Sequence record: OP902294.1
Direction: 5' to 3' (one strand)
DNA: 64,000 bases
From: Staphylococcus phage BSwM-KMM1
Part shown: piece after piece, positions 12,728 through 19,513 of the stretch
Numbering within the stretch: position 1 is the stretch's first letter
Layout: each line of letters begins with the position of its first letter
Translations under genes and position numbers: made by a program
The notes under the pieces: model-generated
Seen by the model: only the letters and a program-made list of their open reading frames with translations
What the model was told of the DNA's origin: nothing
The model's database searches: none

Positions 12728-12871
12728 ATGGCAACAGATAAACAAGTTAAAGATATTATCGAAAAGTTTATAGATAATGTATTTAGTTTTGATGTACTAA
12801 CAATGGAAAAGGTAGCAGAGAAAGACGAAGAAGTCAAAAAATATCTGTTAATGACGTATATAACAAAGTAG
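12728..12871 (+). CDS. small hypothetical protein, or N-terminal part of the next gene if an A is missing at about 12866
   Basis: ATG preceded by AAAGGAGG. 47 codons ending in TAG, which overlaps the GTG of the 12871 ORF. Confidence 0.3.
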   Translation: MATDKQVKDIIEKFIDNVFSFDVLTMEKVAEKDEEVKKYLLMTYITK

Positions 12872-13614
12872 TGTATATTAGACCTTATGTAGGTGTTATA
12901 CAAAGCATGAATACTCAACATATACAATATGAGAACTTTTCAAATAATGGTACAGATGCTGAAGCAGTAGTTACTTTTAGAAAAATAAGTTATCCAATAG
13001 GTAGAGAGTCTATACCAACAGACTCTTTATCTACACTTATTATTAGTTTAGTTGAACGAAATCAAGAATTGCTTATAGATTCATTTGACGAGACGCAGGA
13101 TGTCCTATACGGAGCCTACATGGAAGAAGAATATGTATTTGATGAGGATGTTCCTCTGAGTACAATAATTGCACTAGATTTAAGTGATAATATTAAGTCC
13201 TTATCAAATATAAAATATATGTTTAAAGGAGCCCCTAAAGAGAATCCTTTTGGCACAGACAAAGATGTTTATATAGATACTTATAATTTATTATATTGGT
13301 TATACCTTGGTGAAGGAGAAGAGTTATCTTACCCAATGAATATTAATTACTTCTTTACAGAAGGAAGGTTCTTTACTATATTTGGTAAAGGGCATAAATA
13401 TAAAGTAGATGTAGACCAATTTATAGCGGGAGATATATTATTCTTTGGTAGAAGTGATACTAATATTGGAATATATGTAGGGGACGGGGAATTTATTTCT
13501 ATGATAGGGAAGTTCCCTAAAGATGAAACGTCTATAGGTAAATATAAGCTAGAAGATTATTGGAACGAATTTAACGGAAGAGTCATGAGATTTGATGAAG
13601 AGGTGTATATTTAA
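12871..13614 (+). CDS. baseplate/tail protein (hypothetical)
   Basis: 247-aa ORF. The C-terminal segment AGDILFFGRSDTNIGIYVGDGEF weakly resembles the NlpC/P60 GDxxFF...GIYxG core, but the catalytic His and Cys are not evident. Its stop overlaps the next ATG (TAATG). Confidence 0.45.
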   Translation: MYIRPYVGVIQSMNTQHIQYENFSNNGTDAEAVVTFRKISYPIGRESIPTDSLSTLIISLVERNQELLIDSFDETQDVLYGAYMEEEYVFDEDVPLSTIIALDLSDNIKSLSNIKYMFKGAPKENPFGTDKDVYIDTYNLLYWLYLGEGEELSYPMNINYFFTEGRFFTIFGKGHKYKVDVDQFIAGDILFFGRSDTNIGIYVGDGEFISMIGKFPKDETSIGKYKLEDYWNEFNGRVMRFDEEVYI

Positions 13615-15450
13615 TGGTAGTAAGATTCCAATCTTCCATGGGAAGAAGTTTAAAAAGAGTAGATTCAGACGACTTAAATGTAAAAGGGTTAGTTTTAGCC
13701 ACAATAAGTAAAATCAATTATCAGTATCAGTCAGTAGAAGTTAAAGTTAATAACTTGACACTAGGAAGACATATAGGGGATGATGGTAGTTTATCTGTAC
13801 CTTACCCTAAATCCTTTATAGGTAGAACACCTGAAGGTAGTGTATTTGGAACAAAACCTTTAATTACTGAAGGTTCCGTAGTATTAATTGGGTTTTTAAA
13901 TGATGATATAAATAGTCCTATAATTCTTAATGTTTATGGAGATAATGAGCAAAATAAAATGATTAATACCAATCCTCTTGAAGGAGGTAAATTTGATACA
14001 GATGACACTTACAAGTATAGTAGTGCAATATATGAGATACTACCATCTTTAAATTATAAGTATGAAGATGGAGAAGGTACAAGTATTAAAACTTTCAATG
14101 GTAAATCTTTCTTCTCTATGACATCAGGTGAAGAGGAGAAACCACAAGCTTCAGACTTCTATACTGGTACAGAATATCAAGATTTATTTACTTCATATTA
14201 CGGTAATAAAACATTAATTGAGCCTAGAATACAAAAAGCACCTAACATGTTATTTAAACATCAAGGCGTTTTTATGATGATGGTACACCCGATAACCATA
14301 TAACTACTCTATTCCTTTCTGAACGAGGGGATATTAGAACATCAGTATTAAATACAGAAACACAACAAAGAACAACACAAGAAATGTCGAGTGATGGGTC
14401 TTATAGAGTAATTAAACAAGACGATGACTTAATGTTAGATGAAGCTCAAGTTTGGGTTGAGTATGGAATTAGTGAAGATAATAAATTTTATATTAAAAAT
14501 GATAAACATAAATTTGAATTTACAGATGATGGTATTTATATAGATGAAAAGCCTATGTTAGAAAACTTAGGAGATAGTATTGAAGAATCTATGAAAAACT
14601 TAGAAGAGATACAAAAGAACTTGAAGATATAAATTATCTCTTAGAAGGAGTAGGGAAGGATAATCTAGAGGAACTTATTGCCTCTACTAAAGAGTCTATA
14701 GAAGCATCTAACCAAGCTACTAAAGATGTTCAAACCTTAGGAACAAATATAAATGCTGTAAGTTCTAGAACAGAAGGTATTATAACACAATTCCAAGATT
14801 TTAGAGATAGAACATTCAAAGATTTTTATGATGAGGTAAATGAATACCTAGCAGGAGAGCATGGCTCGGTTGAAACAATTGTTAATACTGATTTACCTGA
14901 AATAAGAAATACTGAACAAAAGTATAGACATACAACGTTTAGAGACATAAAAATACATGCGGATTTACCCTTTAAATTCCAAGACTATGATAGTATAGTA
15001 GCAAATGATAATGTGACGTATTATTTCCCGCAAGGTATTGCCATTAATAACGGTCAAACCTATATTATACATTCAGCTCCTGAGAGCGGTACTAAAAGAC
15101 TAATTGTTATCTATGATGAGTTTTATAAGTATGTTAATATGTTTTACGCAGGAACAACCGGAGGAGAAGGTCTTCATGTAGAAACAGAAGGAACTAAAAC
15201 TTACCTCTATGCTAGAACAAGCAATAATAATATAGGTAAGTTTGATGTAACTAATTCTAGAAATATTGAGGAGAAATCAACGTTACAACCTGTAGAAGAA
15301 TATAATATAAACGCATACATGAATTTCTTTAGAACAGAAAGTGGATGGGGAGTAGAATACAATAACCAAACTAAAGGTGTGTTTTTACAGAGAGATACGG
15401 TAGTATTCTTCAACAAGGATTTCAGTAAAAAACAGGGTACTTATGGATAA
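13614..15450 (+). CDS. baseplate/tail protein of about 612 aa (frame broken twice: T-run at about 14265, A-run at about 14615)
   Basis: ORFs 13614-14303, 14304-14632 and 14640-15450 read continuously after 1-nt corrections. No enzymatic motif found. Confidence 0.5.
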
Positions 15451-15524
15451 ACCCTTCTAATTCTACATTATGGTCAAGTAATTTATTAGAGGGAGTTACA
15501 AACCACTCAGCTAAGAAGCAAGGT

Positions 15525-16507
15525 ATGACACTTATAAATAATACCATCGTACAGACACTAGGAGGTAACTGGAACCCAACTAGAGATATTGAACCACATA
15601 CTTATCATTTACAAGGGGTACAAGAGATAAGCCCTAGTGGAGATATTATGAATGATTATACGTACCATCCTTATGAGTTAAGAGATTACCTAACTAAACA
15701 AGGTAAAGTTGTCGATATGATTGAACATGAAGGTGCGTTCTCTTATAATAATAGACTATTTAGTATTATTGTTTACAAAAGCAGAACTAAATCAGATGCA
15801 AATAAACAAGGTGTACTTATTGTAGAATACAAACCTAAAGAGAAAGAATACACTTTCAATAAGACAGGGAGCCTTTCTTGGCACCTACAGCTAACTATAA
15901 CCCTTATAAAACTAATATTGATGGTAAGCTTTATAATGAATACACAGGAGAAGAAATAACAAATATTAAAGACCTTGTAAGATATATGGTATCAACGTAT
16001 CAAAGTAATATTGTATTCTATTCATCTAAGGTATCTATGTTAGATTATGAAGGAGTAGCTATACCAGGAGGTATACGAGTAGAGTTAGAGAATTTAAATA
16101 ACTACACATTCCATTTACTGTACAGAGGTAATGCTACTAATGAAGTTTATATAATAAATTATACAGCCTCTACAGATAGCTTTAATATAACTTCACAAGA
16201 TTCTGATAACAAATACGATAAACTAGATTTAAGTACTATTAAATATAAGATGACAGGGTACGTAACAAATGCTACAAATACACCTACAAGTACTAGACAT
16301 GGTTATATAGATTCAAGAAGGTATGGCTCTAATTCTAAATTGTTCTTCTCTCCTTATAATAGTTACAGAAACATATATGAACCTAAATCTAGGGGAGTAT
16401 GGCAAGGTTGGGAAAAAACAGGAAGTAACACAGATAACAACAACCCTGTAGTAGTATCTAAAGAAGAACCTGCAGAAGCAGTTATTTGGTTTGAGGTGAC
16501 TGACTAA
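15525..16507 (+). CDS. tail/baseplate protein of about 327 aa (frame change near 15875)
   Basis: ORFs 15525-15959 and 15878-16507 overlap in different frames. The TTG 'start' at 15878 is an artefact of the ORF caller. Composition is fibre-like, rich in N, T and Y. Confidence 0.4.
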
Positions 16508-16698
16508 TGAATAAGTATTTAATAGTTTTGAAAGATAAGAATAACAAAGAGTTTTTAAACGAGTATGATATTCAAAATATAGAAATTTATATGGGAGTAA
16601 TTGTTATTGCTTATATGTTAGAAAGTACAGCAAAAGAATTAGAAACACATTCTAACATAGAGAGTATAGAAAAGATGGAGCAGAGCATGTCGATATAG
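16507..16698 (+). CDS. small hypothetical protein
   Basis: 63-aa ORF. ATGA overlap with the preceding gene. Confidence 0.35.
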   Translation: MNKYLIVLKDKNNKEFLNEYDIQNIEIYMGVIVIAYMLESTAKELETHSNIESIEKMEQSMSI

Positions 16699-16751
16699 AA
16701 GAAGAATCCGATATAAGATATGAGACTTCCACAACAACGTATGCCTTTGAT

Positions 16752-17615
16752 ATGATGGAAATACAGAAATTCCATAAGGAAGGGTATACAGGAAAAGGTT
16801 TTAAGATAGGTTTACTTGACACAGGTGTACAGAAGCATGTAAACTTAAACGTAACAGATGGTATAAATGTTTATGATGGTAATTTACCATGGGATAATAG
16901 TTTAGCTAACTCCCATGGTACTCTAGTAGCAGGGGTTATTAATGCTCAAGGTAGAAACGGAGAGCTTATAGGTATAGCCCCTGACGCAGAGTTATATGCT
17001 ATTAGAATAGATAATGGAAATGGGGCTATTAACTCTACTACATGGAGCTCTCAAATAGCGGGGATGAGTTGGGCTATAGATAATGGAATGGATGCTGTAA
17101 ACTGTTCCTTTTCTAGTAGGATAGAATCTAAAGCTAGAAAAATGGCTTTTAAGATAGCAGAAGAAAACGGTATAGCTATATTTTGTAGTGCAGGAAACAC
17201 ACAACCTAGTAATGATACAACTACAAATACTGCTAAGTATCCTGCAAAATACCCTTTCACTATAGCAAATGCTAATATATATCCTGATAAGAGAAGATAT
17301 CCTACTAGTTGTATAGGTCAAGGTTTGAATTTCTCAAACGGAGGGGTAAAAGTGGTAACAACAACTACAGCTAAAAACTCTACTGCAGTAAGCACAGCCT
17401 ACTCAGGAGGTAGTACAGGAACCTCTCTAGCATCTCCGGCTACACTAGGTATCTATATATTATATAAACAAAAATACAAAGAATCTAAAGATAAAATATT
17501 ACAACGAATGGCAGTTAATGCAGAAAACCTAGGAGACACTTTTTGGTACGGAGCAGGATTACCTAAGTATCCTACAAGTAATTATATAAATATTAATATT
17601 AGGGGTAAGAAGTAA
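16752..17615 (+). CDS. subtilisin-like serine protease (peptidase S8)
   Basis: All four S8 signature blocks are present in order: LLDTGV (Asp), SHGTLVAGVI (His), CSAGN (oxyanion Asn) and GTSLASPA (Ser). 287 aa. Confidence 0.75.
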   Translation: MMEIQKFHKEGYTGKGFKIGLLDTGVQKHVNLNVTDGINVYDGNLPWDNSLANSHGTLVAGVINAQGRNGELIGIAPDAELYAIRIDNGNGAINSTTWSSQIAGMSWAIDNGMDAVNCSFSSRIESKARKMAFKIAEENGIAIFCSAGNTQPSNDTTTNTAKYPAKYPFTIANANIYPDKRRYPTSCIGQGLNFSNGGVKVVTTTTAKNSTAVSTAYSGGSTGTSLASPATLGIYILYKQKYKESKDKILQRMAVNAENLGDTFWYGAGLPKYPTSNYININIRGKK

Positions 17616-17616
17616 T

Positions 17617-18087
17617 ATGCAAATGAAGTATAAAGTAGCCGGGCAATTTGAACATATGTATCCAAAAACGCTCGGAGATAATGTTAATCTAAATAATGGT
17701 CAAACATTAGAGCAATGGAAAAAACAGATAGATGATATTTATAACGATAAAGAAGATTCCGATTTTAACGAAGTATGGAGCGGGGCAGACGTATTAGGAG
17801 GGAATTCAGAATTAACAATACTAAAGCCTTTAAAAGAGTGTAAGAATGGGTGGATACTAGTATTTAAAGAACCTTCAGGAGCATCAGGTAATATTAACTA
17901 TTGTTATGTACCTAGAGTCCATTCCGATTTATATTCTACTTTTGGGGTAAAATTTTTAGTAGGGGTTAGAAGTGGAGGAGTTCGTTCTAAGTTCTTGTTC
18001 ATTACGGACACAACAATAAAAGGACATACTTCCAATGGTACAGGAGGAAATGAAGAAACTACATTAGTTAAAGTTATAAGTTACTAA
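17617..18087 (+). CDS. hypothetical protein
   Basis: 156-aa ORF overlapping the previous stop (TAATATG). Gly-rich C-terminus. Confidence 0.5.
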   Translation: MQMKYKVAGQFEHMYPKTLGDNVNLNNGQTLEQWKKQIDDIYNDKEDSDFNEVWSGADVLGGNSELTILKPLKECKNGWILVFKEPSGASGNINYCYVPRVHSDLYSTFGVKFLVGVRSGGVRSKFLFITDTTIKGHTSNGTGGNEETTLVKVISY

Positions 18088-18100
18088 ATAATAATTAAAA

Positions 18101-18127
18101 GGCTAACTAAAGTTAGTCTTTTTTTAG
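18101..18127 (+). terminator. rho-independent terminator
   Basis: GGCTAAC/GTTAGTC stem including one G-U pair, TAAA loop, then TTTTTTT. Confidence 0.6.
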
Positions 18128-18157
18128 TTGTAATTTAAACTAATTCGTGATATATTA
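18125..18157 (+). promoter_or_regulatory. candidate late promoter TAGTTG-N20-TGATATATTA
   Basis: Motif class shared with 5044, 23574 and 55957. About 45 nt upstream of the 18200 start. Confidence 0.45.
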
Positions 18158-18199
18158 GTAGTATGAGATTTATATACATACTGAAAAGGAGAGGATAAA

Positions 18200-18990
18200 A
18201 TGCCACAATCAGACGGAATAAGTAGCCTTCATAGAATAGCCTTACGTTTCCCTAAAGAGGGCGGTGGTTATGATATGTACAGATTTAAAGTAAACCCGGA
18301 AAACTATACTATAGATGCACCTCAACGTACAACAGCAATTAAAACAAAATCGGATATTGTGATAGAAGATTACGGTAAAGACATAGAAGTTATTAACTTC
18401 TCAGGTACTACTGGATTTAGACCAGTCAGAGAATCAAGTGGTTTGAAAACAGGTAAACAGAAAATGGAAGAACTACAAAGCAGAGTTAAAGAGTATGCAA
18501 TGCAAGGTGGAAGTGGTAACGTAAGCGGTTCTTACTTACAATTTTTAACTTTACAGATGATAGTTACTATAAAGTACATTTAGCACCCCAAGGATTAAAA
18601 ATAACTAGGTCTAAGGATGAGCCTTTACTCTTTAGATATGAGATAACCTTAGTAGTTATTGGTTCATTAACGGAGTCGGATAGAAGTGCTGTAACAACAG
18701 AAGAGTTTGGTAATATTAATCCTAATGCTTCACAGAGAGTTGACGAAGGTATGAAAGAATTAGATAAAAATGCCCGTAAGACTAGAGACAGAAACAATCA
18801 AGAAATATCTAGAAGAGAAAATACAATACCTAAATCTACCGGAGACAACACAAATGAGGGTAATAGACTAAAACAAAGCTTTCCTAGTAGTTCTATATAT
18901 AATCCTAGACAATCTACTAATGGATTAAAAGGGAACATTGATAACATGGCTCTAATAATAGGCTATGGTGATGGAGGTGTATCTAGTTAA
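18200..18990 (+). CDS. baseplate protein of about 263 aa (frame broken at a T-run at about 18545)
   Basis: ORFs 18200-18583 and the continuation ...FFNFTDDSYYKVHLAPQGLKITRSKDEPLLFRYEITLVVIGS... to 18990 join after a 1-nt fix. Size matches the 263-aa baseplate-region ORF of K-like phages. Confidence 0.5.
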
Positions 18991-19513
18991 TGAATAATTT
19001 TATAGCACAACCACAAGGTTTACTTAGATTTTTAAATGCTTTAGATACAGATTTAACTTCTTCTCATATGAATTTACTTGATGAAGAGGTATCATTTGTA
19101 TCTAGATTTTATACCCCACAGCTACAATTAAGTGAATTAGCAAAAACAGTATTGACAAGTATAAAGACAGATGATATACCTGTATTAGAGAGGAATTTAA
19201 TAATAACACTATTATCCATAAAGCAAATGATACATTGTTAAAAGTCCAAGCACCTAGAATGTATATGATTTTACAATCCATTGTACTTGAAGCATATGCT
19301 ATTGTTAATTGCTTTGTAGAAAACCCAAGTTCTTTGAAATATTTAACTGAAGATGATGTTAAAATAACACGAGAAAACTTGAATTATGTAGCAGATTATT
19401 TAGGTAACTATGATGACTACAATAGTGTTGTTCTAGATTTAAGAGATTTAGACTTATGTTTTAGTGCAATAGAATTACAACTACCTCTAATTAAAAAGGA
19501 GGCTAATGTATAA
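18990..19513 (+). CDS. baseplate wedge-like protein of about 174 aa (frame change at about 19238)
   Basis: ORFs 18990-19241 and 19235-19513 read as one protein of about 174 aa. Size and position match the small baseplate wedge subunit of Twort-like phages. ATGA overlap with the previous gene. Confidence 0.45.

Follow-up and report, generated by a model that had tools for sequence, protein, structure and literature searches.

The stretch of DNA considered here (hereafter, the window) comprises 64,000 nucleotides of Staphylococcus phage BSwM-KMM1 (sequence record OP902294.1). This report concerns a gene in its baseplate/tail block that codes for a subtilisin-type serine protease of family S8, together with the two genes enclosing it. 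The gene upstream encodes the central spike, a glycerophosphodiesterase-bearing tail protein which ends here in a conserved C-terminal tail of 19 residues; the gene downstream encodes a small protein predicted from its modelled structure to be a receptor-binding tip. The tail, the protease and the tip occur together in every locus for which the relevant flank is available. The existence of the protease gene is not new, but the literature search made here found no study of this trio. The coordinates of the features are collected in Table 1.

In a preliminary description of the window, an open reading frame (ORF) of 287 codons (16752..17615, plus strand) was presented as a complete S8 subtilase. 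Exactly these boundaries were recovered, but the ORF is not complete: in the alignment, the phages PG-2021_19, EW36 and phiSA_BS1 all possess a single uninterrupted ORF of 367 codons, starting at the position of window 16507, and the homopolymer error described below cuts the prodomain off in the window. The annotation of phiSA_BS1 lists it as a ‘protease’ gene of 1104 bp, with a start that overlaps the stop codon of the gene before it. The difference comes down to two bases. The run of four A at 16670–16673 corresponds to five A in PG-2021_19 and EW36 and to AACAA, also one base longer, in phiSA_BS1; the deficit separates the first 82 residues (the prodomain plus about eight residues of the mature domain) from the ORF described earlier. 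At the other end, the G missing from the run at 17602–17605 converts the true terminus ...IRG into ...IRGKK. With both bases restored, the translation is colinear with those of the relatives over all 367 residues.

Table 1. Features of the spike–protease–tip locus in the window (positions are those of the whole 64,000-nucleotide stretch).
Feature	Position	Strand	Remarks
Central spike/glycerophosphodiesterase tail protein gene	13614..16507	+	five ORFs in the window owing to one-base homopolymer deficits
Cassette, 1.65 kb	16418..18068	+	similarity to vB_Sau_P68 ends at 16417 and resumes at 18069
C-terminal tail of the upstream protein, 19 residues, VVVSKEEPAEAVIWFEVTD	16448..16504	+	putative docking hook or tag
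GAGGTG, Shine-Dalgarno sequence for the protease gene	16493..16498	+	inside the Glu-Val codons of the tail
True pro-subtilisin gene	16507..17608	+	367 aa after two homopolymer bases are restored; alignments to phiSA_BS1, PG-2021_19 and EW36
N-terminal fragment ORF, 63 aa	16507..16698	+	most of the predicted I9-like prodomain
A4 run, one base short	16670..16673	+	frameshift truncating the ORF described earlier; alignment to relatives
ORF described earlier	16752..17615	+	catalytic domain minus about eight N-terminal residues; artefactual KK end
Asp23 codon	16818-16820	+	
His55 codon	16914-16916	+	
Oxyanion Asn149 codon	17196-17198	+	
Ser225 codon	17424-17426	+	
G4 run	17602..17605	+	G5 in all three relatives; stop moved from 17606-17608 to 17613-17615
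Gene for the receptor-binding-type tip, 156 aa	17617..18087	+	N-terminal adaptor YPKTLGDNVNLNNGQ, helical stalk, beta-sandwich head (model)
Terminator-like hairpin with T-run	18097-18122	+	end of transcription unit

Deficits of this kind are frequent around the gene. Over 12866–19300, 10 of the 12 indels relative to PG-2021_19, the nearest relative (96.4% identical to the window), are one-base homopolymer deficits in the window (e.g., at 14268, 14612, 15426, 15866, 16391, 16669, 17601, 18118 and 18541). Each of them disrupts an ORF which is intact in PG-2021_19, and four of the breaks fall within the central spike gene, in that relative an intact ORF of 970 codons. Because of their homopolymer type and because they break essential genes, the deficits appear to be errors of sequencing or assembly and not biology. 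The next structural gene downstream is also fragmented by homopolymer deficits (18200..18583 plus 18751..18990). Since such errors probably occur across the whole window, caution is also needed with the ORFs called in its other parts. The practical lesson is that homopolymer errors can give a truncated gene a complete appearance.

The assignment to the S8 subtilases, initially made from the DTG (Asp), HGT (His), SAGN (Asn) and GTSLASP (Ser) blocks, was upheld. The ORF as it stands in the window matches the Pfam profile Peptidase_S8 (PF00082) with E = 1.6e-28 and 100.3 bits (cut-off, 21.8 bits) over profile positions 1–287 of 288, and PHROG 3677, ‘protease’, with E = 1e-68. The best matches among solved structures are true Bacillus subtilisins (DY, Carlsberg, BPN′ and NAT; E = 1e-36 to 1e-31). 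Residue-by-residue alignment to subtilisins DY and NAT places Asp23, His55, the oxyanion Asn149 and Ser225 of the ORF on D32, H64, N155 and S221, respectively, so the triad residues had been correctly assigned. In the numbering of the full-length protein, these residues (D105, H137, N231 and S307) are invariant in the 31 homologues of the alignment, which are 43–77% identical to the reference, and all four are also intact in more distant members of the family. The blocks NCSFSS and IFCS(A/G)GN are likewise invariant across the 31 homologues. Such invariance of the triad, the oxyanion Asn and the two blocks suggests a selected, active enzyme. The gene is a genuine one for a subtilisin-type protease, and its product is probably active.

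The structure prediction agrees with this assignment. A model obtained with AlphaFold2 (AF2) for a 98%-identical homologue, built with 31 family members, shows the pro-subtilisin topology with a mean predicted local distance difference test (pLDDT) score of 87. In Foldseek, its comparison with mature subtilisins gives a template modelling (TM) score of 0.92 (target-normalised) and a root-mean-square deviation of 1.6–1.7 Å. Membership in S8A is thus indicated by the profile, by the order of the triad together with the oxyanion Asn, and by the subtilisin alpha/beta fold. At the same time, the substrate-binding cleft departs from that of the classical subtilisins (SFSS vs. SLGG, and a three-residue insertion), so the specificity is probably not of the broad subtilisin type. 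Reasoning from the S1 pocket was set aside: in the Twort-type clade, the position of Gly166 is occupied by Lys, but this position is variable across the family.

The N-terminal part lost to the first frameshift is, according to the model, an I9-like prodomain. Its residues 2–56 are arranged as beta-alpha-beta-beta-alpha-beta (pLDDT 84–92), the very start of the protein, MNKYLIVLKDK, forming the first strand. A disordered linker (58–66) lies between the prodomain and the subtilisin domain; the wider region of residues 58–75 is variable in the 31 homologues and is modelled with low confidence. The top Foldseek match is the unautoprocessed full-length pro-subtilisin E (3whi, 376 columns). With phmmer, the prodomain of the same protein is aligned from query residue 36 onward, and with the full-length query the alignment to mature subtilisin begins at chain residue 3, query residue 76. 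The Pfam profile Inhibitor_I9 gave no match on the N-terminus, even at E up to 10, and the prodomain is therefore assigned by fold and position alone. The earlier suggestion of a chaperone-like intramolecular pro-domain holds only insofar as an I9-type intramolecular chaperone is a usual part of subtilisins. A hydrophobic leader was seen in none of the 31 homologues, to which no dedicated signal-peptide predictor was applied, and the pro-subtilisin appears to be made in the cytoplasm without a signal peptide.

The gene has a narrow distribution among the relatives of this phage. Orthologues of the S8 protein were found in only 11 Staphylococcus phage records vs. 242 records matching the surrounding region, which makes the cassette a rare accessory. 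In the cassette-less phage vB_Sau_P68, about 72 bp stand in its place and the next structural gene comes directly after the spike gene; in the window, the cassette comprises the last 29 codons of the spike gene, the protease gene and the 156-aa gene. The earlier remark that a subtilase would be unusual here for phage K-type genomes was thus borne out. The accompanying idea that it replaces a glycerophosphodiesterase tail protein proved wrong: the gene of the latter lies directly upstream. The C-terminal piece of this protein matches phrog_22693, glycerophosphoryl diester phosphodiesterase, and its N-terminus, SDDLNVKGLVLA, corresponds to the central spike construct of phage 812 (PMC13433997). 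In phage 812, the central spike protrudes by more than 30 nm, and its proposed role is the clearance of teichoic acid ahead of the peptidoglycan hydrolase (PMC13433997). The location of the protease gene in the baseplate/tail block upstream of a terminator also held good, the hairpin listed in Table 1 being the only terminator predicted on the plus strand after 13033. Further upstream, the gene at 12871–13614, preceding the spike, has counterparts labelled ‘protease’ (vB_Sau_P68, PSU5) or ‘tail protein with lysin activity’ (phiSA_BS1). Its position is that of the gene for the weld protein of phage 812, the clip domain of which has a catalytically inactive CHAP-like fold, and the label ‘protease’ should not lead to its being mistaken for the S8 gene.

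The homologues of the protease form 77 clusters of 287–371 aa (67 of them at 357–371 aa), mostly metagenomic; siphovirus prophages of Staphylococcus and Mammaliicoccus carry them too. Among representative genomes the family is rare, for no member turned up when one genome per bacterial species was scanned. Phages of Bacillus, Moorella and other hosts also have S8 genes, but these were rejected as orthologues, being less than 32% identical and situated among non-structural genes, as was the second S8 gene of phage PSU4 on the same grounds. The latter, an unrelated gene of vB_SurM-PSU4 (Baoshanvirus; L013 4962-5999), is 29% identical and lies beside a gene with a lipase/acylhydrolase domain in a non-structural region. 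The gene under study bears the name ‘protease’ or ‘extracellular serine protease’ in the annotations of phiSA_BS1, phiSA_BS2 and Golestan101-M and is included in a PHROG; hence, its existence is not new. It is uncharacterised in these relatives, and a literature search found no study of the gene or of the trio of tail, protease and tip.

The first element of the trio, the C-terminal tail, has the consensus [IV][IV]VS..EP.....[IV]WFEV.. and closes the upstream ORF in all loci for which this flank is available. The survey covered about 26 distinct loci with upstream sequence; the trio loci from the metagenome scan partly overlap the earlier ones (L036 = L022, L037 = L009). The tail is absent from the spike of the cassette-less vB_Sau_P68, and a tblastn search with it returned exactly the same 11 phage records as the search with the S8 protein. 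The proteins ending in this tail are diverse and include central spikes (895–970 aa), a 761-aa collagen-containing protein, fibres combining BppU_N with collagen (244–280 aa), coiled coils of 94–111 aa and a 260-aa poly-gamma-glutamate hydrolase. Within the tail, Val/Ile-Trp-Phe is followed by an end of constant length, four residues, of which the final two are variable (TD, IE, VE, LP, LK). Outside the Glu-Val codons the tail varies at synonymous sites, and this part of it is selected as a peptide.

The poly-gamma-glutamate hydrolase (PF05908, E = 7e-54) is encoded in two IMG/VR contigs of 140 kb and 74 kb (L015 3219-4001 and L017 3219-4001, respectively). Its gene, equipped with its own ribosome-binding site and with the same tail, is inserted between the central spike gene and the protease gene, as a capsule-degrading cargo on the same module. 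A motif resembling the tail, TAPDKPEKNDIWFQT, was also noticed near the N-terminus of P0160, a 288-aa fibre protein with the same head domain as the tip; motifs related to Pro...Ile-Trp-Phe may be used elsewhere in the fibres of Gram-positive phages.

As to the tip, its AF2 model comprises 30 disordered N-terminal residues, a helix (31–49) and a confidently predicted beta-sandwich (52–155). The best Foldseek match is a monocin side-fibre chain (9j1l_2, E = 7e-6), followed by the receptor-binding proteins of phages 812 and K. When compared with the viral structure library, the model matched the C-terminal portions of tail proteins of Gram-positive phages, and the tip matches the C-terminal end of phrog_7389, tail fiber. 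A profile search gave 1595 matches; in the 150 best of them, each multi-domain protein had the head at its extreme C-terminus. By its predicted structure, the downstream product is a receptor-binding tip of the BppL/FtbP type. The genes of carrier and tip are not adjacent as in the BppL/FtbP arrangement, since the protease gene always lies between them. Tip homologues encoded downstream of the protease are 149–167 aa long and share the N-terminal adaptor YPKTL..NV..N.G in every locus with the flank. In one prophage (GCA_003979605.1; L009 9117-9572), the adaptor is kept and the C-terminal half is unrelated, a pattern expected for the swapping of receptor-binding heads. The monocin counterpart, FtbP, is built from a latch at the N-terminus, a stalk of three helices and a beta-sandwich head; beta-sheet complementation with hooks of the carrier provides its docking (PMC11830787).

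The complete trio was encountered in Twortvirinae myophages, in siphovirus prophages of Staphylococcus and Mammaliicoccus and in metagenome contigs. The bodies of the upstream proteins are varied but surface-directed: a phosphodiesterase spike, BppU_N with collagen, short coiled coils or the poly-gamma-glutamate hydrolase. Distant homologues of the tip devoid of the YPKTL adaptor come directly after a BppU-type carrier or another protein, with neither an S8 gene nor the tail, and the three more distant adaptor-bearing tips tested all come after an S8 gene. The linkage, together with the lack of protease and tail next to adaptor-less tips, argues that the tail, the protease and the tip adaptor represent a co-inherited triad. 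In OPT-SC01 (L019 3628-6336), the trio, with a 375-aa collagen protein bearing the tail, is found outside the baseplate operon, among small genes near the genome end; the module therefore moves as a unit.

The three genes are also translationally coupled. The Glu-Val codons of the tail read GAG GTG in 25 of the 26 distinct loci and GAGGAG in one; GAGGTG is a perfect ribosome-binding site located 8–10 nt before the protease start. The stop codon of the spike gene overlaps the protease ATG (TAATG, 16505–16509), and a stop/start overlap is found in all 26 loci. Inspection of the sequence also revealed that the Arg-Gly codons at the end of the protease serve as the ribosome-binding site of the tip gene. 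Conservation of the termini is thus partly a matter of nucleotides, because the ribosome-binding sites sit within the Glu-Val codons of the tail and the Arg-Gly codons of the protease. The possibility of a carrier–protease fusion generated by frameshifting was considered as well; it is unlikely in the window, where a TGA is located two codons before the protease ATG.

The most likely role of the enzyme, to which we assign a rough probability of 45% and which is therefore proposed tentatively, is that of a spike- or fibre-borne protease, assembled with its partners of the trio and clearing host surface proteins. In the module, the tail is grafted onto whatever tail protein lies upstream, here the glycerophosphodiesterase-bearing central spike. 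An active-looking pro-subtilisin is made late, in the cytoplasm, in a fixed proportion with this surface-directed protein and with the tip, a small and presumably trimeric protein of the receptor-binding type whose N-terminal adaptor is specific to the module. On the proposed reading, the three products would come together where the spike or fibre has its distal end, docked there through the tail and the adaptor of the tip as docking elements or strands. The virion would then carry a protease beside the teichoic-acid-cleaving and peptidoglycan-cleaving enzymes. The prodomain would fold the enzyme and keep it inhibited until after assembly or release, whereupon the mature enzyme would strip wall-anchored surface proteins or a proteinaceous matrix shielding the receptor. 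Analogies are offered by the docking of FtbP on the monocin carrier (PMC11830787) and by the role proposed for the phage 812 spike (PMC13433997).

Several considerations weigh against a virion-borne enzyme. The literature search found no paper on the protease and no virion proteomic, structural or biochemical evidence. Subtilisins are normally monomers and fibres are trimers; besides, canonical autoprocessing would detach the prodomain and leave the attachment of the enzyme unexplained. The conservation at the tail Glu-Val and the protease-end Arg-Gly is in part accounted for by ribosome-binding sites instead of protein contacts. In two loci, the tail-bearing partner is the poly-gamma-glutamate hydrolase, a protein without an evident baseplate anchor, and the trio lies outside the tail block in OPT-SC01 and in two prophages. 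Given such a partner and such locations, a soluble complex fits as well as a virion-bound one.

A possible, though clearly less probable, alternative is a dedicated enzyme of assembly or maturation which would trim the carrier tail (e.g., after Trp-Phe) or the tip adaptor and then be discarded without entering the virion. The strict linkage of tail, protease and tip adaptor and the placement of the protease gene between those of carrier and tip are compatible with such a function. As is generally held for subtilisins, Val/Ile-Trp-Phe would be a plausible P3–P1 sequence, and the end that follows it has a constant length of four residues; moreover, monocin and other tails employ chaperones missing from the final particle. 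However, no known fibre needs an S8 protease, the known chaperone-proteases of fibres being fused S74 domains. The tail is variable in its final two positions, and the constancy of its Glu-Val is due at least in part to the ribosome-binding site; a full pro-subtilisin also seems heavy machinery for a single cleavage.

It is unlikely that the protease is a soluble late enzyme, alone or in a complex with the tail-bearing enzyme and the tip, which is set free when the host lyses and then removes surface proteins or biofilm matrix from cells nearby, to the benefit of the progeny. Bacillus phage phiNIT1 reportedly makes a free poly-gamma-glutamate hydrolase, which would be an analogue. Without a signal peptide, release would have to be by lysis, and in the two prophages mentioned above the trio comes after the endolysin; its displacement from the tail block in OPT-SC01 and the anchor-less hydrolase partner point in the same direction. 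Yet most loci carry the tail on certain parts of the virion (the central spike, the BppU_N fibres), with the module inside the baseplate operon.

More doubtful still is the notion that the tail represents a portable tag and the subtilase its reader, which couples any tailed protein (a spike, a collagen fibre or a capsule hydrolase) to the tip. In one form of it, the protease would be a structural bridge between the tailed protein and the tip. In the extreme form, cleavage after Trp-Phe would unmask a docking end, or yield an acyl intermediate passed to the tip, as in sortase-like or PatG-like ligation. Were it true, this would amount to a protease-driven, plug-and-play arming of phage tails.

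Intracellular action on host defence or regulatory proteins, with an incidental position in the tail operon, is improbable. The product is cytoplasmic and lacks a signal peptide, the sole match in the defence-system library is to a generic ‘subtilase’ model, and distant S8 genes of Bacillus phages do lie among early, non-structural genes. However, those Bacillus genes are less than 30% identical and are not orthologues, and the invariable tail and tip partners as well as the late-operon coupling would be left unexplained. Least probable of all is a pseudogene in this phage, capable of giving only a prodomain-less, unfoldable fragment: the frameshift is present in the window as given, but within 6.4 kb one-base homopolymer deficits also make four breaks in the essential spike gene and disrupt other structural genes, and, since a phage with those breaks would not be viable, read errors are the better explanation.

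If the spike- or fibre-borne role applies, its significance goes beyond one phage. To our knowledge, the phage tail enzymes described to date have sugars, teichoic acids, lipids or peptidoglycan as their targets. With a subtilisin carried by the adsorption apparatus, or produced along with it, surface proteins would join this list, which would bear on the host range of broad-host staphylococcal phages employed in therapy. Since the trio passes from myophages to siphovirus prophages or the reverse, and is joined to cargo proteins that are unrelated to each other, it offers a compact and directly testable example of modular tail evolution, possibly also a usable tagging system.

Among the known systems, the closest to the enzyme itself are the pro-subtilisins of Bacillus (E, BPN′, Carlsberg and DY; MEROPS S8A with an I9 propeptide), with which it shares the fold, the order of the triad, the oxyanion Asn and a prodomain of about 57 residues, arranged as beta-alpha-beta-beta-alpha-beta and followed by a linker, at an identity of about 27–34% in the Foldseek alignments. 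Pro-subtilisin E without its signal peptide is 352 aa long, and the phage protein 367 aa. Unlike the secreted Bacillus enzymes, made as prepro-subtilisins, the phage protein has no signal peptide. Its cleft features NCSFSS in place of NMSLGG, a three-residue insertion before the Trp equivalent to Tyr104 and Asn in place of Asp41. It also possesses a conserved C-terminal extension of about 8–10 residues, and its gene is embedded among tail genes and translationally coupled to them.

The S74 chaperone domains of endosialidases and of T5 pb1 resemble it as fibre-gene-associated proteases, insofar as the S8 enzyme might have a part in the maturation of fibres. The S74 domain is autoproteolytic, works with a Ser-Lys dyad and is fused to the C-terminus of the fibre, whereas here a separate Asp-His-Ser subtilase has its own prodomain; in the Pfam search of the protein, S74 gave no match and Peptidase_S8 was the sole significant one. 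The likeness to virion-associated depolymerases resides in a surface-polymer enzyme encoded within the adsorption apparatus, beside enzymes directed at teichoic acid and poly-gamma-glutamate. With few exceptions, the spike and fibre depolymerases we know of hydrolyse or, as lyases, split glycans or lipids and are fused into the fibre, and a separately encoded subtilisin with a prodomain, putatively present in the virion, would be unusual among them.

The tip is related in its FtbP-type stalk and beta-sandwich head, and in its position downstream of a trimeric carrier, to the BppU/BppL pair of TP901-1 and the FtbN/FtbP pair of monocin, and some carriers of the trio contain BppU_N domains. Unlike in those pairs, a protease gene is intercalated between carrier and tip, and the 19-residue carrier tail and the tip adaptor both occur only together with the protease. 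Finally, the upstream gene is a homologue of that of the phage 812 central spike and occupies the same position in the baseplate operon, but here, and in about 5% of the related records, the spike is longer by 29 residues, the tail among them, and the protease and tip genes come after it.

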